The notes under the pieces are model-generated. The model made no database searches, was not told where the DNA came from, and saw only the letters and a program-made list of their open reading frames with translations. From a virus: a stretch of DNA of 34,051 nucleotides. This document shows positions 1 through 30,896 of the stretch, piece by piece. Both the position numbers and the translations under genes were made by a program. Within the stretch, counting starts at the first letter, position 1. The number at the start of each line of letters is the position of its first letter. Location of the stretch: positions 160,545 through 194,595 of the IMG/VR virus record IMGVR_UViG_3300048599_000816. One strand, 5' to 3'.

Positions 1-1385
1 TTTTTTACAGATTCAATAAGGTTTTCAATAGAAATTAAAATATCACAATCGCAAAACACAAAAACATCATATTTTGCTTTTAATGCTGCAATATTCATTC
101 CCCAAGACTTATTAAAGTCACCAGAATTTCCAAGAAAAAAATAACGAATTGGGAACGTTACATCTTTAAGAGTAGGATGTTCACCTTGTTCTGTAACTAT
201 TATTTCAAATCCGTGTTGTTTTACAAAAGAAGAGTAATAACTAAGTGTTGCTAAAATTGCTTGTTTTCTATCTGGGTGTGATTCTTTATACGGTATTATT
301 AGTGAAAATTTATATTCAGTTTTTTGATTTTTTATTTGTTGTTCTCCACCCCAAATAGAATATTTCATAATATTACAACCACAAAAAGAAAAATCTTTTA
401 AAGATCTTAAGTTTTGATATTCTTCATTGTTCCAAATATCTTTTATAAAATCTTTTTCAACAGTAAAAAAGCCTATATGTTTTTTGCCTTGGCAACAAGT
501 TACAACTTCTCCATCAGTTTTTATAACCGTTTGTATCCAAGGATAAGAACACAACTTATTTTCGACATCTGGGTTTGATTCTTCACAGTAAAACTCAAAA
601 TACTTATCAACAGGCAGTGAGAAATCATGCCAATTACTAGTTTTTTTTAATTTCTTACCACCAACATGTGATGGAGTAGAGATACGCATTTTAAGTTCAT
701 CAGCCAACTTTACTGCATCATCAAAATTTTGAGCATCTTCTGCTGTCAAACTTGTTTCTTCATTACCATCAATACAACCCAACATAATTTCTTTGATGTC
801 TAAGTTATTAGACCATTCAATTACTTGTCGTAAAAAATTAACATTATTTTTACCCACAACAACAGCAACACGAAGATGAAATTTATCTTGATTTATTTGT
901 TTTTGGATTGATTTTAAGAAGTTTATGTTTTCAACGATTTGCTCAACATTAGTACCTTTTCTCATACTTGATGTTAAACCATCAAAAGAAACATTTACCC
1001 AAGAACCAACTTCTACAATTTTTCTTAAAAGTTCTTTGTTGATTTTATAACTAAGATTCGAAAAAAACTTTATTGTGAAATGATATTTAGAACAAACATC
1101 AAGCATCTCAGCAAAATTTTCGTAAAGGGTTGGTTCACCACGTAAAAACAAATTTATTTCACTTAAATACTCAAACAATTGTTTTTCTAGAGCATAAAAG
1201 ATTTTCATGTCTAAAGGTTTAATGTTTCTTTTATCTTGTGAATAACAATATGAACAACATAGATTACAAGACACAGTAGGCTCTATATATAGCTTTAAAG
1301 GATATGAATTTAAAACAACTTTTCTTTGTTCACATTCTTTAAGATTTAGTAAAGCATTATTATAAGCTTTTTCTGAAACTTTCAT
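1..1385 (-). CDS. Radical SAM enzyme with a SPASM-type auxiliary Fe-S domain fused to a GT2-like glycosyltransferase domain. Partial: the C-terminus runs off the window start.
   Basis: The minus-strand ATG at 1385-1383 overlaps the stop of the upstream 175-aa gene in an ATGA arrangement. The frame stays open to coordinate 1, giving at least 461 aa. The N-terminus has CNLCCSYC, which fits the CxxxCxxC radical-SAM triad, and a RGEP glycine-rich motif. Further along, CSYPW...DGEVVTCC...IGF...DIWN...FCGC matches the SPASM Cys pattern. The last roughly 130 aa have SLIIPYKES and DCD motifs typical of the GT2 family. Confidence 0.6.
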   Translation of the reverse strand, partial: MKVSEKAYNNALLNLKECEQRKVVLNSYPLKLYIEPTVSCNLCCSYCYSQDKRNIKPLDMKIFYALEKQLFEYLSEINLFLRGEPTLYENFAEMLDVCSKYHFTIKFFSNLSYKINKELLRKIVEVGSWVNVSFDGLTSSMRKGTNVEQIVENINFLKSIQKQINQDKFHLRVAVVVGKNNVNFLRQVIEWSNNLDIKEIMLGCIDGNEETSLTAEDAQNFDDAVKLADELKMRISTPSHVGGKKLKKTSNWHDFSLPVDKYFEFYCEESNPDVENKLCSYPWIQTVIKTDGEVVTCCQGKKHIGFFTVEKDFIKDIWNNEEYQNLRSLKDFSFCGCNIMKYSIWGGEQQIKNQKTEYKFSLIIPYKESHPDRKQAILATLSYYSSFVKQHGFEIIVTEQGEHPTLKDVTFPIRYFFLGNSGDFNKSWGMNIAALKAKYDVFVFCDCDILISIENLIESVK

Positions 1386-7335: not shown

Positions 7336-8040
7336 TTAGACAGAAATCTCTTTTTGCACAGTTTTCTTTGATTGCGTATGATAGAGAGAGTTGTACTTTT
7401 TGAGGAGAGAGAATACTTTGTAATAAATTGCAGCTTCTCTCGCTAGTGACACACTTGAAGATTTTTTTAAATACTCTAGTCTTTTTAAACCTAACTTAAT
7501 TCTTGACCCTATAGATTCATAAAGCAAATCAGGTTTGCCTTCAGCTTTCCCAATTTTTTTTGCTATTCTTCTCAAATCATGATCTTTAAAATATTCTAAC
7601 ATTGCAATTTTTTGTTTTTTAGTCACATGTACATCAAGAAAATCTTCCATTTTTGTAATATCAATATTTCTAAAAAAACAAAGCAAGTTTATACGTTTTA
7701 GTGCACGTTTCTTATAATAACATACCATTTCTTGAGATACTTTTAAAATTCTACCCACAACTTCTTGTTTCTTTTTATAGAAAAACAATAAAAGTATCAC
7801 ATATTTTTCTATTTCTGGTAGCATGTGCTCTATAACATAATTTACTTCATTGATTTTCTCTTCATTCTCGAGCTCAATTTGAACGTCTTCAGAAGTATAG
7901 AGACTGTCACTATTTGAAAAAAACAACTCTAAAAGATTATTGTCAATTCTGACTTCACGTTTATATGCACTGATATCTCCACTTGGATCAAAGTGTCTTA
8001 TAATACTTGACTTACTTAATTTTGGGAGATAATCATCCAT
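7336..8040 (-). CDS. Sigma-factor-like protein (234 aa) with a region-4-type helix-turn-helix (VSQEMVCYYKKRALKRI).
   Basis: The motif resembles sigma-70 region 4 (lg.s.erVrqie.rAl.kL). The rest of the protein is not recognisably sigma region 2. Confidence 0.4.
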   Translation of the reverse strand: MDDYLPKLSKSSIIRHFDPSGDISAYKREVRIDNNLLELFFSNSDSLYTSEDVQIELENEEKINEVNYVIEHMLPEIEKYVILLLFFYKKKQEVVGRILKVSQEMVCYYKKRALKRINLLCFFRNIDITKMEDFLDVHVTKKQKIAMLEYFKDHDLRRIAKKIGKAEGKPDLLYESIGSRIKLGLKRLEYLKKSSSVSLAREAAIYYKVFSLLKKYNSLYHTQSKKTVQKEISV

Positions 8041-8043
8041 AAA

Positions 8044-8187
8044 CTATTCTTCTTTCGATGTTTTTTCCTTACAAGAGTCACATATCATACGACCATTTAC
8101 TAAACTTGTAGCTGGATTTTTACCACATTCTTCACATAAACCTGAAGCTATTTTAATTGGTTGTGGTGTACCTTGTTTGTGAAACAT
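8044..8187 (-). CDS. Small zinc-ribbon protein (47 aa): MFHKQGTPQPIKIASGLCEECGKNPATSLVNGRMICDSCKEKTSKEE. Not in the ORF track.
   Basis: Hand-translated from the minus strand. TAAGGAGTTTTTTATG Shine-Dalgarno upstream. Two CxxC pairs (CEEC ... CDSC). Fills the gap between the ligase-like gene and the sigma-like gene. Confidence 0.5.
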   Translation of the reverse strand: MFHKQGTPQPIKIASGLCEECGKNPATSLVNGRMICDSCKEKTSKEE

Positions 8188-8197
8188 AAAAAACTCC

Positions 8198-9100: not shown

Positions 9101-9449
9101 TACAATCTCCAAAAACAAATTGAAATCTAGAAATCTTTCTTTTAAAAACATCTTTAAAAACAAATTTATTCTCATTTGCATAAAAACAAATCATATTAGG
9201 TTTGTCTTTAAAAAACATATATGCTCTACCTGTGTGCAATGCTCCAACACTAGAACATTTTTGTAATAATTGCGTCACTTGGCATTCTATAGATTGCATT
9301 GCAATATTATTTATACAAGAAGTTAAATGATTATTATAGATATGCACAATTTGATTTGAAAAATCAGGTACTATAGAAGTGTCAATACACATACTTTCAT
9401 CAAATTCTATTTGCAAATTATCTTCAAATTTGACAACTCTTGCACGCAT
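9093..9449 (-). CDS. Hypothetical protein (118 aa).
   Basis: ORF track. Its start overlaps the NYN gene stop (TAATG) and its stop overlaps the ligase-like start. Confidence 0.4.
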   Translation of the reverse strand: MRARVVKFEDNLQIEFDESMCIDTSIVPDFSNQIVHIYNNHLTSCINNIAMQSIECQVTQLLQKCSSVGALHTGRAYMFFKDKPNMICFYANENKFVFKDVFKRKISRFQFVFGDCNG

Positions 9450-10057
9450 TATTTCTTTCCATCAAACATGAAAGATTCATCAATTTCAAAAAATTTTGAA
9501 GCAACATTTTTCAACTCTTGTGAAGTAACATTCTTATTAGCAGAAAAAGAATATACTTCTACTTGAATATTTTGCAACTTTAAATACTCTACTAATGCTA
9601 CAAAATCACCATCACCCGAGACTAAAACAACAGTGTCAAGAGCATCTTTCTTAGTGATGATATCTATTGCCATTTCAATATCTAAATTGCCTTTTGCTGA
9701 CCCATCACTTCTTTTTTTCAAATCTTTTGAAACTATATTGTAACCAATCTGTTTTAAAAAACTAACAAAACTTGTATTATCATTATCTCCTTTTACAAGA
9801 TAAGCATTTGAAACACAAAGTTTTCTACCTTTAGTAATGCATTCAGTAAGTTTCTTAAAATCTATTTTTTTCTTAAAATTATCCATTGCACCATAATAGA
9901 CATTTTGAACATCAACAAAAATCCCAACTCTTTCGTCAGGTGTGTTTCTGTTCTCTACTCTTACTTGAAACAAAAAATCCCCTTTAAGGGAATCAACAGC
10001 TTCAAGTAGTTTTTTATAGTTCTGTATTTTACTTTCTTTCATTTTTTCCCTTATCAT
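9449..10057 (-). CDS. NYN (LabA-like) domain protein, a putative RNase (202 aa).
   Basis: VGIFVDVQNVYYG ... VLVSGDGDFVALVEYL ... G..V: this is the conserved Asp pattern of the NYN/PIN-like fold. Confidence 0.6.
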   Translation of the reverse strand: MIREKMKESKIQNYKKLLEAVDSLKGDFLFQVRVENRNTPDERVGIFVDVQNVYYGAMDNFKKKIDFKKLTECITKGRKLCVSNAYLVKGDNDNTSFVSFLKQIGYNIVSKDLKKRSDGSAKGNLDIEMAIDIITKKDALDTVVLVSGDGDFVALVEYLKLQNIQVEVYSFSANKNVTSQELKNVASKFFEIDESFMFDGKK

Positions 10058-16576: not shown

Positions 16577-17410
16577 TTATTGACAAGATAGACATCTTTT
16601 TGCATTATGAGCTTTAGCTACAAAAAGATTATTACATTTGATGCATTTTTTTTCATACAACTTGGGATTGTTTTTTTTCGTATCACTAATTTTTTGTTTT
16701 GATTTTTCAGTATGAACCTTTCCAAAAAACGAATTACCTTTACCTTTTGTCCGAGCACTAATATTCTTTTTTACTTCTTCTGAAAACTTCTTACCCTCAA
16801 GACTTTTAGTTATTTTTTGTTTAGACTCTAAACTATGTTTTTTGCCAAACATTCCGTTATTTTCACCAGAAGAAGCACGACTTAATTTTCTTTTATGAGA
16901 TTTAGAAAGAACTCTACCTTTATTTGCATTACTTACTTTATCTTTTGCTTCTTGCGTATGTTTTCGTCCATACATACCATTTTTTTCGCCTGCTCCCTTG
17001 CCTTTTCTGTTTCTTTTTAACTTTCTAAGCGATTTATCAGACAAATTATGTATTCCGTCACCACCATCTGTCAAATTTGTTAAAGGCCCAGTTTTTAAAT
17101 CTATTCTACCAATTGATTTTATTAACTGTATTTCAAGTTTAGAAGCATCAACAAAGCTCAAATCTGTTTTTATTTTAATTCTAAAAGCATCTACACCTGT
17201 TTCTCTTTTAATCTTACAAATTTTATTTGCTTTTAATTTATTTGAGTCTTTATGTTTGTAAGCAGACTGTAAGTGGTGATCTATTCTATTTTCTCTTCCT
17301 AAACCTATATAAAAGGGTTCAAATGAAAACAAATTATCAAAAACAATTGGTTTTCTTGGATCTAAATATGCATAAACATAAAAATCAGTTTTTTGACGAT
17401 TTAATTTCAT
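16577..17410 (-). mobile_element. Free-standing GIY-YIG homing endonuclease gene with three C-terminal NUMOD3-like repeats (277 aa).
   Basis: FYVYAYL ... FYIGLGRENRIDHH is the GIY-(10-11)-YIG motif plus a conserved Arg. The repeats are GEKNGMYGRKHTQEAKDKVS, GENNGMFGKKHSLESKQKIT and NSFFGKVHTEKSKQKIS. No Shine-Dalgarno. The 5' end overlaps the ruvC-like 3' end by 26 nt. Confidence 0.8.
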
Positions 17411-22849: not shown

Positions 22850-24406
22850 TCAATTTTTTATTGCATCAACAAAATATTGTGGGAAAAATTTTCTATTTTG
22901 TTTAAGAAAGTAATTAAATTGACTATCCATGATGTAGATCGTGCAAAAATCTTTTTCATGTCTTACACCACGACCTGCAGCTTGAACAAGCGTCAAAGCT
23001 GTTTTCCACTTATACCATTCACTATCAAGCTCCATACGTTTTTTTATTTGTTTGTCTCCCAAAAACATAAATGGCAACTTAACTATAACAACAAATCTTG
23101 CAAGATCGTCTTTTAAATCAACACCTTCTGTCATTGAAGGTGTGATCAAAACTTTAGGCTCTTTTGTTTCTAAAAAACCTTTAAGTGCGTTAATTCGAGA
23201 TTCACTATCATGTAAAATTAATCTTGATTGATACTTAGGATCGACGTTTTCTTTTATGTAATTTGCAATTTTATAAGAATGTGCATGAATCAATCCTTTT
23301 TCTGAATCATGAAACTCTAAAATCCTGCCTATATCAAAAGCTATTTTGGGTAAAGATTCTTCAATGTCGTTTTTTCCTAAATTCCCAGACCTTGTTAATA
23401 TGATTGGTCTTATATCTACAGGAAATGAAGAAGGAACTTGAATAAACTTTGTCTTCTTAATATCTAAATCTAAATTTTTACAAAAACTATCTTTATCAAG
23501 AATTGTCGCTGACATAAATAGTTTTTTTTCAGCATGCCTAAAAAGTAAATTTTGAGCAAAAAACCCGACAGTTAAAGGTTTGAAAATAATTGTTTTTGAC
23601 CTTAACTTTTCGTTAGTTGTTATATCAAAGATCCACTCTATTTTCCCATAACTCTCCAAAAACATTTTTACACGTTCTTGTTGACTTATTAAGCTCTCAA
23701 GCTCTTTTTGAAGGTCAGAAATTATTGCTACATCAAGAAATTTGTTTTTCAGTTTTTCTGTAGTTTCTTTTCTTCTTTCTTTTATTTTCTCTTGAAGCAT
23801 CTTTAACCACTCGACATATTCTTCGAGTTTTTCATATAAAGGTATTTTTGAAGTTACACCAAGTTTTGAAAGATTGAAAGACGAAAAACTAAACTCAACA
23901 AACGACATACACTCATTATCTAAACTATGTGCTTCATCACATATCAAAAGTTTTCTATCAGGAAAAGTATTTGTGTAATTTGTAATACAAAGAAAGTACT
24001 TATAGTTCATTAAAGCAACAAAAGATTCTACAGCTTGTTGTTTTGCAACTTCATAAAAGCACTCGGGTTTTACAGGACATTGTTTTGTAGAACAATATGA
24101 ATCTTCACATGTAAAATCAGGAAGCAATTTGCAAGGATAGTTGTTTCTACCTTTAAGAACTCTAACTCTACCCGAACTATAATCTTTTATGTATTGATCT
24201 TGAAGTATTTTTTGCGACGTTAAAAGGAAAGCAGATTTATAATAAAGTCCCAGACAAATTGCAATAGCGCTTTTACCTGAACCTGTAGGGCTTTCCAAAA
24301 CAACATTCTCTATTTCTTCAGAATCTAAACTCTGTTGTATGTCGAGAATTGTTTCTTTTTGAAAAGGTCTGAACGTCGTGTGTGGGAAAAAATCGAGAAC
24401 GCTCAT
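22850..24406 (-). CDS. XPD/Rad3/DinG-family SF2 helicase with an inserted 4-Cys Fe-S domain (518 aa).
   Basis: Walker A SPTGSGKSAIAI. DEAH box LICDEAHSLD. Between them sits CKLLPDFTCEDSYCSTKQCPVKPEC. C-terminal motif VI QAAGRGVRH. Confidence 0.75.
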   Translation of the reverse strand: MSVLDFFPHTTFRPFQKETILDIQQSLDSEEIENVVLESPTGSGKSAIAICLGLYYKSAFLLTSQKILQDQYIKDYSSGRVRVLKGRNNYPCKLLPDFTCEDSYCSTKQCPVKPECFYEVAKQQAVESFVALMNYKYFLCITNYTNTFPDRKLLICDEAHSLDNECMSFVEFSFSSFNLSKLGVTSKIPLYEKLEEYVEWLKMLQEKIKERRKETTEKLKNKFLDVAIISDLQKELESLISQQERVKMFLESYGKIEWIFDITTNEKLRSKTIIFKPLTVGFFAQNLLFRHAEKKLFMSATILDKDSFCKNLDLDIKKTKFIQVPSSFPVDIRPIILTRSGNLGKNDIEESLPKIAFDIGRILEFHDSEKGLIHAHSYKIANYIKENVDPKYQSRLILHDSESRINALKGFLETKEPKVLITPSMTEGVDLKDDLARFVVIVKLPFMFLGDKQIKKRMELDSEWYKWKTALTLVQAAGRGVRHEKDFCTIYIMDSQFNYFLKQNRKFFPQYFVDAIKN

Positions 24407-24855
24407 ATATGCTCTATATCTTGTACTTTTGATTTTACAATTTTATCGAAATATGAGGGCTTTATTTTCACTACACGCTTTCGTATTTCAACTATAATTC
24501 CATCTATATTTGAAAGATCACCTTGTTTTATAATTACATGATCCCCTGTTTTAAATAACGAAGGTTTTGTTTGTTTTAATTCTACGTCAGTAACAGATAG
24601 CTTTTTAATTTGTGCTGATGTAAATTTTTGCGGACCTTCTTTTTTCGTCCCAAGAAATTTCAATACACCTTCAAAAACTAAAAAATTACTTACTTGTTGT
24701 GGTAAAATAGCAGTAGTAGAACGAATAAAAATATAACCTGAAAGCTCTTCTGAAGTAAACACTTCTTGAAAAGCCAAACTTTTTTGTTTTGAGACTAATT
24801 GATCTCTAATATATTGCTCAAAACCTTGGCGGACTAAAAGAATATACCAACTCAA
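24403..24855 (-). CDS. NusG-like transcription elongation / antitermination factor with NGN and KOW domains (150 aa).
   Basis: WYILLVRQGFEQYIRDQL resembles the NusG WYVVQAFSGFEGRV segment, and SGYIFIRS resembles PGYVLVQM. The C-terminal KOW is FKTGDHVIIKQGDLSNIDGIIVEI. ATGA overlaps on both sides. Confidence 0.65.
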   Translation of the reverse strand: MSWYILLVRQGFEQYIRDQLVSKQKSLAFQEVFTSEELSGYIFIRSTTAILPQQVSNFLVFEGVLKFLGTKKEGPQKFTSAQIKKLSVTDVELKQTKPSLFKTGDHVIIKQGDLSNIDGIIVEIRKRVVKIKPSYFDKIVKSKVQDIEHI

Positions 24856-26066
24856 GTTGACAATCCTTTTAATTTTGTTTTTACTGTAGAGACGATCATT
24901 CTTTTCATTTTAATAACATGACCTTTTGATCTCTTGTATTTTTTTGCTATTTCATCATCACCATTAATGTCATATTTCATATTACGTATTATATCATTAT
25001 ACATTGAATTTCGCAAATTTTCTCTCAAATCTCTTTCAATATGAAATAGATCATTAACATCAACATTGTATTTTTTTGCTAAGGAATAAAGAGAATTTTG
25101 CATCGTAGATTTATCTCGAATTACTTGGAGTACCTCCTGTTTTAATTCGTCAGATGCATCAATGGTTTTTAATTGGAACATCATTTGAATATGCTTACAC
25201 ATATCTCTGTTCATAAGATCTTCTTCAAAATTGCTTTGAGGTATATGTGTTTTTTCACTAGAGATTATTTCATCCCATGAACATTCAGGATCGTCTAATT
25301 CTATTTTACAAGCATTTGTTTTTCGTTTTTTTGTAGATAAAAGTTGAAGAACTCTATTGAAAGCACAATTGATCACATACCAAGCATAAGTAGAAAAACA
25401 ACCTGATGATTCTATATCAAACCATTTTGCAACCTGTTTATGCAATGCAATTACAATATCTTGGTAAAAATCAGTTTCAGTCCTATCTTGAAATTGTGCA
25501 AAACGGTGTTTATTGAAACTAACATAATTTCTAATTATTTGGTCCCAAGTTTTACCATTTACACCACGTTGATATAGAATAGTATTAAAAATTCTATTTT
25601 GTTTCTTTTTATCTTCAGTTTCTCTGAATGCTTTGATTAGATCCTTTTCGTCTCTATCTTGAGGAAGTTGATCAGCTTTAACAACTACCTTTATTTTTCT
25701 TTTTTCTTCCTTTTTAATACGCTCTTTTTTAGTTTTAACTACTATAACTTCATGTTGAGTAACAGAAGGAGTGTAACTATCAGGTATTTTAAAATCAAAG
25801 TATTTTGAAAAAAGAGTTAAAAGTTCATGTTCACTAAATATACTACCAATACATCTCATTTTGCCAAGATGTTTTTGTTTAGCTTCTTCTTCGGTAATTT
25901 TAATGAAGTTAGGTCCAAAATCTGGATTGTATTCTAATAGTTGAACTTTTTTTCCAGAAAAGCATGCTTTTTTACCGTTTTCGTGTTTGAAAATCGTAAA
26001 ATGTTTTGTTACGTCAGGCTTGATGTTAACCGGTAAAATTGAGAAAAAATCGTTAGACAAATACAT
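24852..26066 (-). CDS. Sigma-70 family RNA polymerase sigma factor with a roughly 200-aa N-terminal extension.
   Basis: Region 2 CFSTYAWYVINCAFNRVLQ (FxxYAxxWIrqaI). Region 4-like C-terminus. I take the start at the ATG at 26066, which has GGGAGAGATTTATG. The ORF-track start at 26090 is a TTG. Confidence 0.75.
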   Translation of the reverse strand: MYLSNDFFSILPVNIKPDVTKHFTIFKHENGKKACFSGKKVQLLEYNPDFGPNFIKITEEEAKQKHLGKMRCIGSIFSEHELLTLFSKYFDFKIPDSYTPSVTQHEVIVVKTKKERIKKEEKRKIKVVVKADQLPQDRDEKDLIKAFRETEDKKKQNRIFNTILYQRGVNGKTWDQIIRNYVSFNKHRFAQFQDRTETDFYQDIVIALHKQVAKWFDIESSGCFSTYAWYVINCAFNRVLQLLSTKKRKTNACKIELDDPECSWDEIISSEKTHIPQSNFEEDLMNRDMCKHIQMMFQLKTIDASDELKQEVLQVIRDKSTMQNSLYSLAKKYNVDVNDLFHIERDLRENLRNSMYNDIIRNMKYDINGDDEIAKKYKRSKGHVIKMKRMIVSTVKTKLKGLST

Positions 26067-26275
26067 AAATCTCTCCCACACTTTCAACAATGATGAAGGT
26101 AAATTTTTAAGGCGCGAAATAATTAGTGAATGTTATTATAAGGAAAGATTTTTATTGTAGGTAAGTTAATGATTTTTAATGCAGAATTGTGTGACTTTCT
26201 CATACTAAAAACTCCATTTTCGTAGGTGTATCTCATACATACGACAAATTAATTATCGTACCTTAAAATAATAAT
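26067..26275 (-). promoter_or_regulatory. 209-nt non-coding region between primase and the sigma gene. Contains a TATAAT -10 element and a near-duplicate 11-mer.
   Basis: Minus-strand TTACCT-N17-TTATAAT. GATTTTTATTG at 26147-26157 and GATTTTTAATG at 26171-26181. Imperfect palindrome cgtaggtgtatctcatacatacg at 26221-26243. No convincing ORF (26 aa at most). Confidence 0.4.
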
Positions 26276-27388
26276 TTATTGTAGGGCTAATGTAAATACG
26301 TTTTGCATATTTTTTGCATCATTAAGTGATTTTTCAAATTCATCTTTTGTACAATCATCAGGATCTTTTCCTTCAGGCAATACAAGATTAAAAACTTGAA
26401 TATCTGTAAGGTACTCATGCATAATCTTTTGTGCAGCTTCTTGGCCTGGATTTGATTTTTTTCCATTTATATCTATTTTATTATCGTTATCTAATGCTAT
26501 ATAAATTCGTTCAAAATTTTGAACTAACTGTTTCGTCTTATAAGAGTTTAAATGGCAACTTAAAAGCGCGACAACATTGTATCCAAATTTCATAATTCTT
26601 AATGCATCAAAAATACCTTCGCAAATAAAAACTTCTTTTTTGTATTTAATTGCTTCATCCCAGTTAAAAAACAACCTACTCATAGGCGTTCCAAAAGGAT
26701 AAAGTATTTTTTTGTAAAGATATTTATCAATGATACGTTGCTTATCTTGTTTTGAAAGATTTTTTGTCTTCATTATAGCTTTTGCTTTTGCCCATATATC
26801 TGACTTTCCCGACATATCTCTTGCAGCAAAAGTAATCAATTTATTTTGTAAATAAACTGGTATTATTAAACGTTCATGAAAAATTCTATCATCAACGCAA
26901 TACTTCATCCCATATTTTTTAATATCTTCCATACAAACACGTTTTTTTACTATATCGAAATATTTCTCAGCAGGTTCACTTGGGGGCAAAACAACTTCTT
27001 TTAATTGTTCATCATCTTCATCTTCTGTATGATTTTCATAAAACTGAAATGTAGAATTTTTCACTATTGAAAATACATCAACTGTCTCATCAATTCCCAC
27101 TTGTCTTCTTGCAAACGCTATTGCTTCTTTTGTAGAGTTTAGATTTTCTAAGTTTTTTATTAACTTAACAAAATCACCACCTCCGCAAACAAAACAGTTA
27201 TAAACACCATTTTTTTCTTGAATACCAAAAGACGGCGTAGAATCATCATGAAAAGGGCAGAGACACATAAATTCTCTGCCCTTTTTTGTCCTATAAGGCT
27301 TATATTCAATATTGTAGTGCTTAAGAACTTTTTCAAGATTTACTTTTGCGTAAATCTCGTCATAGATTTGTTCATAGTTCTCTATCAT
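26276..27388 (-). CDS. dnaG: DnaG-type DNA primase with a CHC2 zinc-binding domain and a TOPRIM domain (about 370 aa).
   Basis: CLCPFHDDSTPSFGI...YNCFVCGGGD is the DnaG zinc ribbon. FICEGIFDAL is the TOPRIM EGxxD. The ORF-track start is a GTG at 27430. The first ATG is at 27388 and overlaps the upstream gene by 17 nt. Confidence 0.8.
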   Translation of the reverse strand: MIENYEQIYDEIYAKVNLEKVLKHYNIEYKPYRTKKGREFMCLCPFHDDSTPSFGIQEKNGVYNCFVCGGGDFVKLIKNLENLNSTKEAIAFARRQVGIDETVDVFSIVKNSTFQFYENHTEDEDDEQLKEVVLPPSEPAEKYFDIVKKRVCMEDIKKYGMKYCVDDRIFHERLIIPVYLQNKLITFAARDMSGKSDIWAKAKAIMKTKNLSKQDKQRIIDKYLYKKILYPFGTPMSRLFFNWDEAIKYKKEVFICEGIFDALRIMKFGYNVVALLSCHLNSYKTKQLVQNFERIYIALDNDNKIDINGKKSNPGQEAAQKIMHEYLTDIQVFNLVLPEGKDPDDCTKDEFEKSLNDAKNMQNVFTLALQ

Positions 27389-28148
27389 TTTTAGCACACG
27401 TCTTTTTATACTGACAAAAATAACAATCACCTAGTCTTGAATTCAATTTAGGTTCTTTTGCAAAATCTTTCTTTGATATTCGTTCAAGCATATTGTTAAT
27501 TTGTCTAAACAAACTATTAAAATCTTCTTCAGTTCTTTGTGTAAACAAAATATCTCCATCAATAGGATATGCAAGCGCTCCATGAATTGATTCTAATGGA
27601 TATTTATATAGTTCTTTAATGAAAAAACTATAAAAAGTGATTTGTGTATTGTTGTCAATATCTTTCTCTTTGCTTTTTGAAGATTTCCAATCAAGACAAA
27701 TGATTATTTCATTGTTCTCAAGAATAATATCAATCCTACCTGACAAAAAAACATTATCAAGATAAGGATTAATAAAGGGTATCTTACAATATTTTTCTAT
27801 TTCAACTACTCTAAAACCTTCCCAACGTTTTTTCATTTTCTTGACATTTCCAATTTGCAATAATCCCTTAACTAAACAATCATCAAGTTCTTTTGCATTA
27901 GGAAAATTTAAACCCTTTGCTTCTGTACAAAAAGCTATAAACAATGCTTTCCAAGATGAAGCAATTTCATCTAAACTCATTCCATACTTGAAATGTAATT
28001 CTAAAGCTTTATGTAAGACTGAACCAAAAGTCGTAAAAATATATGCTTCATCAGCTGGTCTCTCATCAATAAACTGCCATTTGTACATTTGCGAACATTT
28101 AAAAAACGAAGACAAAGATGATGAAGAAACTGTTAAATAATCTCTCAT
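27372..28148 (-). CDS. Cas4/RecB-family PD-(D/E)xK nuclease with a 4-Cys Fe-S cluster (258 aa).
   Basis: One N-terminal Cys (FKCSQMY) plus C-terminal CYFCQYKKTC (Cx2Cx5C). GRIDIIL...ICLDWKSSK is a D...D-x-K core. TQITFY is a QhxxY motif. Confidence 0.6.
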   Translation of the reverse strand: MRDYLTVSSSSLSSFFKCSQMYKWQFIDERPADEAYIFTTFGSVLHKALELHFKYGMSLDEIASSWKALFIAFCTEAKGLNFPNAKELDDCLVKGLLQIGNVKKMKKRWEGFRVVEIEKYCKIPFINPYLDNVFLSGRIDIILENNEIIICLDWKSSKSKEKDIDNNTQITFYSFFIKELYKYPLESIHGALAYPIDGDILFTQRTEEDFNSLFRQINNMLERISKKDFAKEPKLNSRLGDCYFCQYKKTCAKNDREL

Positions 28149-29446
28149 GATTTCATCTCGTTAAACAAAAACTCTACTGCTTTTTCATTTACTGTACCAA
28201 TGTACATCGAGTTATAAGGTATTTTATTTTGTAACAGATCTTGCTTAATTTTTGCCTCTCTATTAGAATCAAATTTTAAAAGATTTGTAATTCTCATTGT
28301 ATAAGCAACAACTTCATCTTCTGTAGCTTTGATATCAAAATCCTTAACAATCTGTTCTATAACAAGTGACGTCTTCACTACTTGAATTGTACGAGGTGTT
28401 GTGTTTACGATAAAACTTTCTTTTGTTACTTTGCTTTCTTTTTCAAGTTGTCCTTCAGTTTTCCCCATACGTCTCAATAAAGCTTCCCACTCATTATCAT
28501 TTTCTTTATCGATCATCACTTGTGGAATTGGTGAAATTTCTGATTCATCAACAATTTTTGAAAGAATGACTTTTTTAAACGTATCAATTGATTTCTTTTG
28601 TTTTTCATCAAGTAAACGAATTTTCAAATTATCTTCATAAGCTTGAATAGAATCAAAACCCTTTGATTTTGCAAAACTGTCATTATAATCAGGTGCGACT
28701 TTGTATTTTATTGCATTTAGTTTTACAGTAAATATAACTTTTTTACCTGACAATTCTTTACTATGATAATCAACAGGGAAAGTCACATTTACTTGACGTA
28801 CTTCGTTAATTTTCATTCCGACAAGTTGATCTTCAAAATTATCAATAAATTGCTTTCTTCCATTGACAAGATCATTTACTCTAATCTGATAGTTCTTTGC
28901 TGTTCCACCTTTAAAAGGTGTTGTTTCTCCATCAAGAACACCTTCAAAATCTATTAAAGCAATATCAAGATTTTCTAAAATTTCTTTTGTAGAGTCGTGA
29001 ATTGTTTCGCTTTGTTTGATTTCTGCATCAATCTTCTCTTTTAACTCAACATCAGAAATAGTTGTTGCTTCAAGTTTCTCTGTTTCTTTTATCTTATCTA
29101 ATGAAACAAGTTTGACAGTCGGTTTTACTTCAGCAACAAACTCTATAGTAAGTGTTGATTTTCTTTTTAAATCTCCAAAGATCTTAAAATCTCTAGTCGA
29201 GACAAGACTAGTTTCTAATGTCGCAATGTCTCTAACAATCTGATCAATCATTGATTTATATAAACGTTCAACGCCAATTTTAGTTTCAGCAACATCTTGA
29301 GGTACACAACCTTTTCTAAAACCTGGTACTTCGATTTCAGACTTTACTCGTTCGTAAGCAGCTTTCTTTCTTTCATTCACATCATCAGCATCAACTGTGA
29401 CAATGTATTTTACAGGTGTTGGCATTTTTTCTGTCTTAATGTCCAT
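28145..29446 (-). CDS. tig: Trigger factor homologue: ribosome-associated chaperone with a PPIase domain, full length (about 433 aa).
   Basis: N-domain signature VPGFRKGCVP (trigger factor GFRxGxxP). FKBP-type middle domain: IDFEGVLDGETTPFKGGTAKNYQIRV...FIDNFEDQLVGMKINEVRQVNVTFPVDYHSKELSGKKVIFTVKL. C-domain: DSFAKSKGFDSIQAYEDNLKIRL and TIQVVKTSLVIEQIV...ATEDEV. Start placed at the ATG at 29446, with AAGGAG 7 nt upstream. The ORF-track start is 29491. Confidence 0.8.
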   Translation of the reverse strand: MDIKTEKMPTPVKYIVTVDADDVNERKKAAYERVKSEIEVPGFRKGCVPQDVAETKIGVERLYKSMIDQIVRDIATLETSLVSTRDFKIFGDLKRKSTLTIEFVAEVKPTVKLVSLDKIKETEKLEATTISDVELKEKIDAEIKQSETIHDSTKEILENLDIALIDFEGVLDGETTPFKGGTAKNYQIRVNDLVNGRKQFIDNFEDQLVGMKINEVRQVNVTFPVDYHSKELSGKKVIFTVKLNAIKYKVAPDYNDSFAKSKGFDSIQAYEDNLKIRLLDEKQKKSIDTFKKVILSKIVDESEISPIPQVMIDKENDNEWEALLRRMGKTEGQLEKESKVTKESFIVNTTPRTIQVVKTSLVIEQIVKDFDIKATEDEVVAYTMRITNLLKFDSNREAKIKQDLLQNKIPYNSMYIGTVNEKAVEFLFNEMKS

Positions 29447-29450
29447 TATA

Positions 29451-30896
29451 CTACTCCTTGTCTTTCTCGACAACTGTCGAAGATGCTTCATCTACTCTTG
29501 AGTCATATTCAAATCTCATAATATCGAATTTTTTTATAAAAAACAGTTTTGAAACACGTGAGTCTCTTGTCTTAGGAAAATCAAGACATGCTGTTTCATC
29601 ATCTCCTGTGATACCCATCATATTATCTACATTGTGTCCAAGTTTATCAGTGAAAGCTGCATCCATAGAATCAACTTCTTTACCGTGTAAATGTCTTTTG
29701 TGCGACTCTCTATTAAACTGACTTGCTCCTATAATTGGAATACTTCTTGATCTTGCAAGCAATTTTAGATCCCATGAAATTACTCCTACAGGATCGTCTG
29801 ATTTTCTATCGCTTGGTGTCATTAAATAAATTGGATCTATAATTAAAAGGTCAACCCTTTTACCCGAAACATTTTCGAAAGCAGTAATTCTTGAGTCGAT
29901 AAATTGACAATTGCAATTTTGAGGTGCATCAATTATCCAGTAAAAATTTGAATGATCTTCTTTGAGCTTCTTCATTTTTCGTTCTATTAATTGTAGCTCT
30001 TCATCGCTCATTAAATCTGGTGTCTTAATTTTATTGTATGCTACTCTTGTGACTAAGGATGTGAATCTATTTCTTTGTTGCACTAATGGCATTTCAATTG
30101 TGACATAAATGATATTGTAACCTGATTTATATGCATTATAACCAAAATTCAAAAGCAAAATAGATTTTCCCATACCTGGTCTACCAAGAACCAAAGAGAA
30201 CTCACCAGGTTGCCAACCACCAGTTGCTTGATCTATTTTTTTATAGCCTGTAGTTATTCCTTGGTATTTTTCAGGGTTTTCGCGTTTTTCTTTTAACTGC
30301 TCTATATACAAGTCAACGTCTTGAACAACATCTTCTTCTATAACTCTATATTTTCCATTAGAAAGAAGAACTTTATTTACAGAGTCTTGTATGTTTTGTG
30401 CCAAAACCATTGCTTCGTGTTTTTCGTCTACAAAGTCATGTTTTAACTGTTCATTTATTTTCAAATTAATGTCAAGAAGACTTCTATAAAAAAACTTCTC
30501 TTTTAATTTATCATACATTGGTTTAAAAGATTTGCTCTCAAATCTGTATGAAAAAATCTTCTCTAAAACTACCTTTTTTTGCTCGTACTCTTCTTGTTCT
30601 TTGTACTTAGATTTTAGCTCATCAAATAAAAAACTTTTAGATACACATTCTGAAAAAGACACAAAATTTTCTTGTAGTTTAGAAAACATCCATTGTTTAA
30701 AATCTGATGTGAATACTTCTTTAGGTAAGCCCAAAAATGTTACGTAAGACAAATTTGAGTTTATCTCGTCAACATCTGTTTTCATATCAAAATCATTATC
30801 GAAAACAAGCAGTCTTAAAACTTTACATTCTAAAACAACATCGACAAATGGTTTTGTATTTTCACTTGGAGCATCAGTTTGTTTTCTTGAAATCAT
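29451..30896 (-). CDS. dnaB: DnaB-family replicative DNA helicase (481 aa).
   Basis: GEFSLVLGRPGMGKSILLLNFGYNAY...VTIEMP (Walker A / H1). Downstream H2-H4-like motifs. Confidence 0.85.
   Translation of the reverse strand: MISRKQTDAPSENTKPFVDVVLECKVLRLLVFDNDFDMKTDVDEINSNLSYVTFLGLPKEVFTSDFKQWMFSKLQENFVSFSECVSKSFLFDELKSKYKEQEEYEQKKVVLEKIFSYRFESKSFKPMYDKLKEKFFYRSLLDINLKINEQLKHDFVDEKHEAMVLAQNIQDSVNKVLLSNGKYRVIEEDVVQDVDLYIEQLKEKRENPEKYQGITTGYKKIDQATGGWQPGEFSLVLGRPGMGKSILLLNFGYNAYKSGYNIIYVTIEMPLVQQRNRFTSLVTRVAYNKIKTPDLMSDEELQLIERKMKKLKEDHSNFYWIIDAPQNCNCQFIDSRITAFENVSGKRVDLLIIDPIYLMTPSDRKSDDPVGVISWDLKLLARSRSIPIIGASQFNRESHKRHLHGKEVDSMDAAFTDKLGHNVDNMMGITGDDETACLDFPKTRDSRVSKLFFIKKFDIMRFEYDSRVDEASSTVVEKDKE

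Follow-up and report, generated by a model that had tools for sequence, protein, structure and literature searches.

The DNA analysed in this study, referred to as the window, is a stretch of 34,051 nucleotides (nt) from a virus, corresponding to positions 160,545 to 194,595 of the IMG/VR record IMGVR_UViG_3300048599_000816. The locus of interest holds a gene for a 404 amino acid (aa) protein of the sigma-70 family and, directly after it, a gene for a 150-aa protein of the NusG/Spt5 family, with a primase gene upstream and a helicase gene downstream (Table 1). This gene pair had been predicted from the sequence alone (the original prediction). The peptide motifs quoted at that time were all present in the translations, and two overlapping open reading frames (ORFs) were found on the minus strand where they had been placed. 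The minus strand carries all plausible ORFs of at least 90 aa in the window, the G+C content of which is approximately 30%.

Identity of the two proteins

The 150-aa product is a NusG/Spt5-family factor with an NGN domain, a flexible linker and a KOW domain, in agreement with the prediction that both NusG modules are present. Pfam PF02357 matched the NGN domain (aa 1-86) over positions 1-92 of the 93 in the profile with a score of 26.9 bits, above the cut-off of 22.2, and PF23284, KOW2_Spt5, matched the KOW domain (aa 103-134) with 27.7 bits, just below the cut-off of 28.9. PHROG 6386, labelled 'transcription antiterminator', also matched the protein, and a profile of 18 members of the NusG-like family matched Spt5 and NusG chains in PDB, including their KOW domains. 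The AlphaFold model, with a predicted local distance difference test score (pLDDT) of 78, showed the beta-alpha-beta-beta-alpha-beta-alpha order of an NGN domain, a linker with pLDDT below 50 (aa 90-98) and a five-strand barrel with pLDDT of about 90 (aa 106-149); the C-terminal domain was predicted in a single state, the beta-barrel form only. In RfaH-type paralogues an autoinhibited, alpha-helical form of this domain can refold into such a barrel. All 49 PDB structures matched by Foldseek with an expectation value (E) of 0.001 or lower were Spt5 or NusG, the closest being full-length archaeal Spt5 (E 5e-9). A length of 150 aa is minimal for a NusG-like protein and is comparable to that of archaeal Spt5. 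Similarity to bacterial NusG was not detectable by a simple sequence search. Seventeen homologues of the NusG-like protein were found, among which the KOW domain was strongly conserved. A KOW-only protein resembling ribosomal protein L24, the alternative named in the original prediction, was rejected, as Pfam and Foldseek both found the NGN domain and L24 gave only weak, KOW-only matches (E 0.1-0.6).

The 404-aa product is a real but very diverged sigma-70-family factor with sigma domains 2 and 4. No sigma family was found in a Pfam scan of this protein, even at E ≤1, a direct sequence search of PDB returned nothing, and it had no sequence match among the sigma factors of cultured phages. Its family was recognised through profiles and folds. 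Two close relatives, P0048 and P0056, matched Sigma70_r2 with 22.1 and 21.2 bits, below the cut-off of 24, and a profile of 30 homologues had 25 matches in PDB, 22 of which were sigma factors, all in region 2 (SigF, E 0.017). When 1.84 billion representative proteins were searched exhaustively with the profile, all ten of the weak relatives that were checked contained Pfam Sigma70_r2, most of them also r4, and alignment of the family to 13 Pfam-verified Sigma70 proteins with hhalign gave a probability of 99.4% (E 2e-21) over aa 157-350. The AlphaFold model (pLDDT 80) has three separate domains, and its top 50 Foldseek matches in PDB were all sigma factors, with modest E values of 4e-4 to 0.2. 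The assignment to the sigma family in the original prediction was thus upheld, but not its statement that regions 2 and 4 are clear, given the silence of Pfam.

Sigma domain 2 was found with a helix corresponding to the core-binding helix of region 2.2 and with region 2.3 aromatic residues, and sigma domain 4 with a helix-turn-helix. The region 2.2-like residues (DFYQD...KWFD) and the aromatic region 2.3-like residues (FSTYAWY) were invariant or nearly so across the 30 homologues, which argues for a working sigma factor. The ORF is under purifying selection, with 60 synonymous and 16 non-synonymous codon changes relative to a 96%-identical orthologue, and both ORFs of the pair are real, conserved genes. 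The sigma start codon is most likely ATG at 26066, with a Shine-Dalgarno sequence, GGGAGAG (26077-26071), 4 nt upstream, and the same initiator methionine was present in all 30 homologues.

The N-terminal extension is indeed foreign to sigma factors, as had been predicted, but its length is approximately 130 aa (a globular part of about 95 aa, referred to as the N-domain, and a linker of about 40 aa) and not 200 aa: sigma domain 2 already begins at about aa 135-157 according to AlphaFold and hhalign. At the other end of the protein, the C-terminal extension contains KYKRSKGHVIKMK, which is the most conserved motif of the family, as judged from the invariant columns of the alignment. The region of aa 280-404 (24855-25229, minus strand) looks as if an 'AKKY + helix-turn-helix' unit had been duplicated within it (SLAKKYNVDVNDLF... 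and EIAKKYKRSKGHVIKMK...), with an acidic first copy and a basic second copy. In P0060, a relative of the short-sigma type (410 aa), the N-terminal part of sigma domain 2 was apparently duplicated, as the profile matched two stretches.

Conservation of the pair and distribution of the N-domain

The sigma stop codon (TGA, 24854-24852) and the TTG start codon of the NusG-like gene (24855) overlap in the sequence TTGA. An ATGA overlap (24406-24403) joins the stop codon of the NusG-like gene to the start codon of the helicase gene. The tight coupling of the sigma and NusG-like genes that had been predicted was therefore present as a 4-nt overlap, but the ATGA ascribed to it belongs to the next junction. 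As both junctions are 4-nt overlaps, the sigma, NusG-like and helicase genes are considered translationally coupled. The TTG start codon of the NusG-like gene was retained in the 96%-identical orthologue, and ATG was used in other homologues.

The NusG-like gene was located directly after the sigma gene, and the primase gene ahead of it, in every related locus with enough sequence. The two genes mostly overlapped by 4 nt or 1 nt or were separated by a gap of at most 25 nt; the exceptions were L025, with a longer overlap, and L017, with an apparent gap of about 150 nt when the first listed start was used. The wider gene order (DnaB, trigger factor, nuclease, primase, sigma, NusG-like, helicase, FEN) was also kept in relatives, on contigs of 71-424 kb, and this synteny spans the range from the 96%-identical orthologue to distant lineages with a short sigma of 288-309 aa lacking the N-domain. 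It also includes a locus with a 442-aa sigma variant. The helicase was again the neighbour after the NusG-like gene in L001, L002, L009 and L038. Homologues of both proteins came from metagenomic and viral contigs only, and no relatives of the sigma were found in 185,579 species genomes. The Gram-positive host implied for this phage is not supported.

Partial matches in the exhaustive search included sigma factors of about 290 aa without the N-domain and many proteins of 90-230 aa consisting of the N-domain only. In addition, three proteins of 267-270 aa had the N-domain fused to NGN and KOW. Two of these fusions (L009 and L008) are encoded directly after a full-length sigma with an N-domain of its own, and L022 is a truncated third case. 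The sigma-borne and NusG-borne N-domains of L009 were 86% identical as proteins, with about 145 nt of identical DNA, and those of L008 were 56% identical. An initiation factor and an elongation factor have thus come to carry copies of one domain, either by duplication or through homogenisation by gene conversion. The synteny of the two genes and this duplication of the N-domain onto the NusG-like protein in three lineages strengthened the proposal of the original prediction that the two factors are packaged together.

The N-domain belongs to no Pfam family (one of 36 members matched DUF5655 with E 0.003, which is only a lead) and had no sequence match in PDB. A further search for homologues of the domain returned unnamed small proteins only, and for the stand-alone N-domain protein no relatives were found in the 185,579 species genomes. 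The gene contexts of the stand-alone copies were uninformative. These copies are small and basic, with a median isoelectric point (pI) of 9.8, and the N-terminal tail was rich in K, P, A, S and T in 14 of the 19 copies with a tail of at least 20 aa. This composition would fit nucleic-acid binding by the N-domain, without amounting to proof. Stand-alone copies were also observed in two virus-like contigs, L033 (contig Ga0180433_10007761) and L034, where the neighbouring genes encode a eukaryotic-type topoisomerase I (Pfam Topoisom_I), Band_7, NT5C and radical SAM proteins, so that the range of the domain extends beyond this phage clade.

Table 1. Features of the sigma/NusG-like locus, in window coordinates.
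Feature	Position	Strand	Details and basis
XPD/DinG-like superfamily-2 helicase	22850..24406	-	Pfam Helicase_C_2, ResIII, DEAD_2; phrog_2488, E 2.5e-110
NusG/Spt5-family gene, 150 aa	24403..24855	-	ORF list, Pfam, PHROG, AlphaFold, Foldseek, PDB profile matches
NusG-like layout: NGN aa 1-86, flexible linker ~aa 87-100, KOW aa 100-150			
Sigma-70-family gene, 404 aa	24852..26066	-	ATG 26066; stop TGA 24854-24852
N-domain, alpha/beta, aa 1-95	25782..26066	-	Basic, pI 8.9; AlphaFold pLDDT 82-94 over aa 1-100
K/E-rich disordered linker, aa ~96-134, ~40 aa	After N-domain	-	AlphaFold pLDDT <50 over aa 102-126
Sigma domain 2, aa ~135-245	25332..25664	-	Region 2.2-like DFYQDIVIALHKQVAKWFD, region 2.3-like FSTYAWYVINCAF
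Disordered linker between sigma domain 2 and sigma-4-like region		-	AlphaFold
Sigma domain 4-like helical region, aa ~280-352	25011..25229	-	Helix-turn-helix SLAKKYNVDVNDLFHIERDLRENL
Basic C-terminal extension, aa 353-404	24855..25010	-	pI 10.1; second helix-turn-helix-like unit; past hhalign match
Short upstream ORF	26123..26236	-	37 codons from ATG of first TATGAGA; 26 codons from second, with GGAG Shine-Dalgarno
TATGAGA, two copies	26237-26231, 26204-26198	-	30 and 63 nt downstream of -10
Sigma-70-type promoter-like site, TTTACA-17 nt-TATTAT	26268..26296	-	Straddles primase stop; 10/12 match
DnaG-type primase, conserved upstream neighbour	26276..27430	-	Pfam Zn_ribbon_DnaG and Toprim; synteny

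The upstream leader and the surrounding genes

A spacer of 209 nt (26067-26275) separates the primase gene from the sigma gene. The original prediction had pointed to this spacer as the place of the promoter and of a conserved short motif, and a promoter-like site and TATGAGA repeats were found there. A sequence of the form TTTAC(A/T)-N17-TA(T/G)NNT was present at the equivalent position in 13 of 19 related loci. Matches to sigma-70-type promoters within the window were at or below chance level, so the call of this promoter depends on conservation across lineages; moreover, as the -35 element lies inside the 3' codons of the primase gene for a conserved peptide, the non-coding -10 element is the only independent evidence.

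The TATGAGA repeats lie presumably within the 5' leader. In the leaders of relatives there were two to three copies, often as TATGAGAATGGAG, 8-63 nt downstream of the -10 element. Ten leaders, otherwise about 50-60% identical, contained 22 exact copies, against 0.34 expected. The repeats form the sole TATGAGA cluster in the window, and the same was observed in each related locus examined; over the whole window the motif was not enriched (9 matches against 6.9 expected). They were lacking in L002, L024 and L025, which are distant loci in which the N-domain is present. Short ORFs of 2-30 codons opening with ATG-AGA at TATGAGA occur in relatives as well, with unrelated peptides. This lack of peptide conservation places the constraint on the nucleic acid. 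No match to the leader was found in an Rfam scan.

Other features were observed in the leaders of relatives. A CTAG-centred motif, (T/A)T(A/G)CTAG(A/T), is present in one or two copies 15-45 nt upstream of the sigma ATG in seven relatives (L001, L003, L014, L016, L017, L020 and L008), just before the sigma ribosome-binding site. It is often palindromic (ACTAGT or GCTAGC) and is absent from the window. In L002, a 52-aa ORF (9823-9981) with eight consecutive prolines and a Cys-rich tail takes the place of the leader, and the promoter-like site is absent together with the repeats.

The coding strand has a single strong intrinsic terminator (18150-18125, minus strand; 10-bp stem, 6 G-C pairs and a T-run), which lies between the UvsX-like and RuvC genes and is followed by a TATAAT-containing spacer. 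The sequence suggests an operon of about 8 kb that would run from sigma to UvsX and end at this terminator.

According to family searches, the window is a phage replication and recombination array in which the sigma and NusG-like genes are embedded. It includes genes for DnaB- and DnaC-like proteins, trigger factor, a PD-(D/E)XK nuclease and the DnaG-type primase; for the XPD/DinG-like helicase, a 5'-3' exonuclease, UvsY-like, gp32-like single-stranded DNA-binding, UvsX/RecA-like and RuvC proteins; and for a homing endonuclease, SbcCD, an NYN nuclease and a ligase-like protein. By blastn, 50,697 phage records contained no match to the 6.5 kb around the sigma/NusG-like locus, and by tblastn the same records contained none to the NusG-like protein. 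The nearest cultured phage, as judged from helicase similarity (32% identity), was Bacillus megaphage G. The clade consists of uncultured large-to-huge phages, with contigs of up to 424 kb and without a close cultured relative.

Among the other genes of the window, a full-length trigger factor (28145-29491, minus strand), a phage-borne version of this ribosome-associated chaperone, is found across the clade with DnaB on one side and the PD-(D/E)XK nuclease on the other (L001 6010-7302, L002 6594-7925, L009 3335-4633, L036 878-2167 and L038 1694-2992), and the orthologues match Trigger_N, FKBP_C and Trigger_C. A second sigma-related ORF of 234 aa (7336-8040, minus strand) matched Sigma70_r4 only (27.6 bits against a cut-off of 24.1, aa 74-117), together with phrog_351. 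Just upstream of it, an ORF of about 47 aa (approximately 8056-8197, minus strand) has two CxxC pairs and is zinc-ribbon-like. The NYN-domain nuclease (9449-10057, minus strand; E 3e-35) and the homing endonuclease (16577-17410, minus strand; phrog_314) are inserted in the recombination gene array. An ORF leaving the left end of the window (1-1384, minus strand) has a CxxxCxxC motif (SCNLCCSYCY) typical of radical SAM enzymes; an apparent ORF-free stretch of 750 nt (629-1381) was rejected as a feature since it belongs to this ORF. A tRNA scan of the window found nothing, and an Rfam scan of the whole window returned no match.

A proposed role in host transcription and its alternatives

The preferred reading, to which a probability of roughly 0.6 was given, is that the locus is a coupled initiation and elongation takeover cassette for the host RNA polymerase in an uncultured large or huge phage. 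The sigma and NusG-like genes would be co-transcribed, probably starting at a promoter of the host type where the primase gene ends. The 404-aa protein would act in a holoenzyme in promoter-specific initiation and bring the core RNA polymerase of the host to promoters of the phage; later genes are the most plausible targets. By analogy with other NusG-family factors, the NusG-like protein would bind the clamp helices of the polymerase and travel with the elongation complex. Sigma region 2 competes with the NGN domain of NusG-family factors for a shared site on the polymerase, the beta-prime clamp helices (PMC2995049), which offers a mechanistic reason for a virus to supply both factors. Once the sigma leaves, the phage NusG-like protein would occupy this site and exclude the host NusG. 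On transcription units of the phage it may then change how the polymerase pauses and terminates, Rho-dependent silencing included; antitermination or pause modulation by this protein is conjectural. The common N-domain could bring both factors to one partner, which might be DNA or RNA, the domain being basic, or a polymerase surface.

A number of observations weigh against this reading. The failure of Pfam to recognise a sigma family in the 404-aa protein has been described above. The sigma-4 region of this protein has a pI of 5.2; such acidity is uncommon among DNA-binding domains, and promoters may therefore be recognised in an atypical way. In the window, which holds no structural genes, no motif emerged as a candidate target promoter of the phage sigma. 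The NusG-like protein of the window has no N-domain. The leader lacks the ops consensus GGCGGTAGnnTG (the whole window had four matches with two mismatches, against 3.4 expected) and its RNA is not structured (fold z = +0.62); the ops-like leader element suggested in the original prediction is not supported. Finally, an operon of about 8 kb has no obvious need for a processivity factor in cis; the target units are probably elsewhere in the genome.

In one alternative, the 404-aa protein would be a sigma-derived DNA-binding regulator, or an anti-sigma-like decoy, retaining only the fold. The absence of a Pfam match, the modest Foldseek values and the acidic sigma-4 region would suit such a protein, as would the added N-domain and the helix-turn-helix-like C-terminal extension. 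This was nevertheless considered very improbable, given the near-invariance of the region 2.2/2.3-like residues (DFYQ...WFD and FSTYAWY) in 30 homologues and the hhalign alignment, which extends across sigma-2 to sigma-4. Another reading concerns the NusG-like protein, which might be an anti-host decoy that sits at the NusG site of the host RNA polymerase and is unable to recruit Rho or the ribosome. Host transcription would then be uncoupled or shut down, or Rho-dependent silencing would be blocked globally, without a specific recruitment element. Its minimal architecture, its strong divergence from bacterial NusG, with archaeal and eukaryotic Spt5 as the best structural matches, and the lack of an ops-like consensus, of a structured leader and of an extra targeting domain on the window copy are all in line with a decoy. 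However, the protein is strictly paired with a sigma, whose N-domain it shares in some lineages, which points to targeted and not global action, and the strong conservation of KOW argues for a maintained partner, which makes a decoy unlikely.

A similarly low probability was given to the NusG-like protein being an adaptor for the XPD/DinG-like helicase, with NGN on the polymerase and KOW recruiting the helicase, which would remove R-loops or stalled polymerases from the path of the phage replisome, i.e. at transcription-replication conflicts. The overlap of the NusG-like and helicase genes, the presence of the helicase neighbour in four related loci and the location of the cassette among replication and recombination genes are compatible with an adaptor. 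KOW domains are established as protein-recruitment platforms (PMC2995049), and the recruitment of the Rho helicase by the KOW domain of host NusG provides a parallel. On the other hand, gene overlaps are commonplace in a densely packed array, the gene after the NusG-like gene in L036 and L037 had no helicase Pfam match, and Bacillus phage G carries the helicase without an adjoining NusG-like gene. The genes beside the homologous helicase in phage G (gp71 and gp72) and in Tunturi_5 (gp193, gp194 and gp196) were not NusG-like. In addition, the sharing of the N-domain ties the NusG-like protein to the sigma and not to the helicase.

Within the takeover reading, the N-domain might be a recruitment module for the sigma, the NusG-like protein or both, with one common target. 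This target could be the TATGAGA leader repeats or the RNA polymerase surface, and the clamp-helix site would be handed directly from the sigma to the NusG paralogue at particular transcription units. This more specific proposal is doubtful at present.

NusG homologues are already annotated in phages, including gp582 of Bacillus phage G, g104 ('nusG') of Synechococcus phage S-CRM01 and those of related cyanophages, Rhizobium (PPF1_91), Sinorhizobium and Mesorhizobium phages and the huge-phage assemblies LR756501-4 (630-735 kb), as well as PHROG 6386. Phage G gp582, which matched the profile of the present NusG-like family (E 2.9e-10), has been mentioned as an 'antiterminator' (PMC12484599). 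Most of the annotated phage NusG proteins are longer than the window protein and closer to bacterial NusG, with 26-45% identity to E. coli NusG. Beside the NusG gene of phage G, S-CRM01 and PPF1, no gene was recognisable as a sigma by annotation and none matched the sigma or N-domain profiles. The view that a phage NusG is much less established than a phage sigma was thus only partly correct: homologues had already been annotated, but none of the three examined lies beside a recognisable sigma.

Specialised NusG paralogues serve long or silenced operons (PMC7819879). RfaH, LoaP, UpxY and TaA resemble the window protein in being a second, diverged protein with NGN and KOW, encoded in or near a horizontally mobile gene array. 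Paralogues of the RfaH type bind the clamp helices and act on specific units via a 5' leader element (PMC7819879, PMC2995049), and the same would be expected here by analogy. In contrast to these four proteins, the window protein is encoded by a phage, is much smaller, at 150 aa, and has its closest structural match in archaeal Spt5. It also differs from the RfaH type in that an ops consensus is lacking, that it is always paired with a sigma, and that some relatives carry the N-domain of the sigma. Neither sigma pairing nor a shared N-domain is described in a review of NusG (PMC7819879), in which phage paralogues are not listed, and no phage system with a coupled sigma and NusG-family factor was found in the literature that was searched, that review included. 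Both protein families are known; what is new here is the constant sigma/NusG-like pairing, the common extra domain and the conserved leader repeats.

Phage sigma systems include gp55 of T4, which acts with gp33 and the gp45 clamp, gp28 and gp33/34 of SPO1, and the sigma-like factors of phage G. T4 gp55 has sigma-2 only, whereas the window sigma has sigma-2 and sigma-4, a new N-domain and a C-terminal extension. The window sigma is paired with a NusG-family elongation factor, T4 gp55 with a gp33-like co-activator. A late sigma of the T4 gp55 type, i.e. a sigma-2-only protein with gp33 and a sliding clamp, was accordingly rejected as a description of the locus. The leader also bears some likeness to the sigma-dependent promoter-proximal pausing associated with lambda Q, in which -10-like sequences lie just downstream of a sigma-70-type promoter, where the TATGAGA repeats are located. 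This likeness is positional only, as TATGAGA is a poor match to a -10 element and no Q-like protein was identified.

By always encoding a coupled sigma and NusG-like factor, a virus would control both promoter choice and the behaviour of the elongating enzyme. The presence of the N-domain on both proteins in some lineages provides a concrete handle for experiments on the binding partner. If the recruitment-module reading is true, it would be a new route of recruitment for a NusG paralogue, and this would be the first known sigma/NusG pair with a common targeting domain. If the NusG-like protein blocks Rho or the host NusG, it would constitute a compact natural anti-silencing tool.

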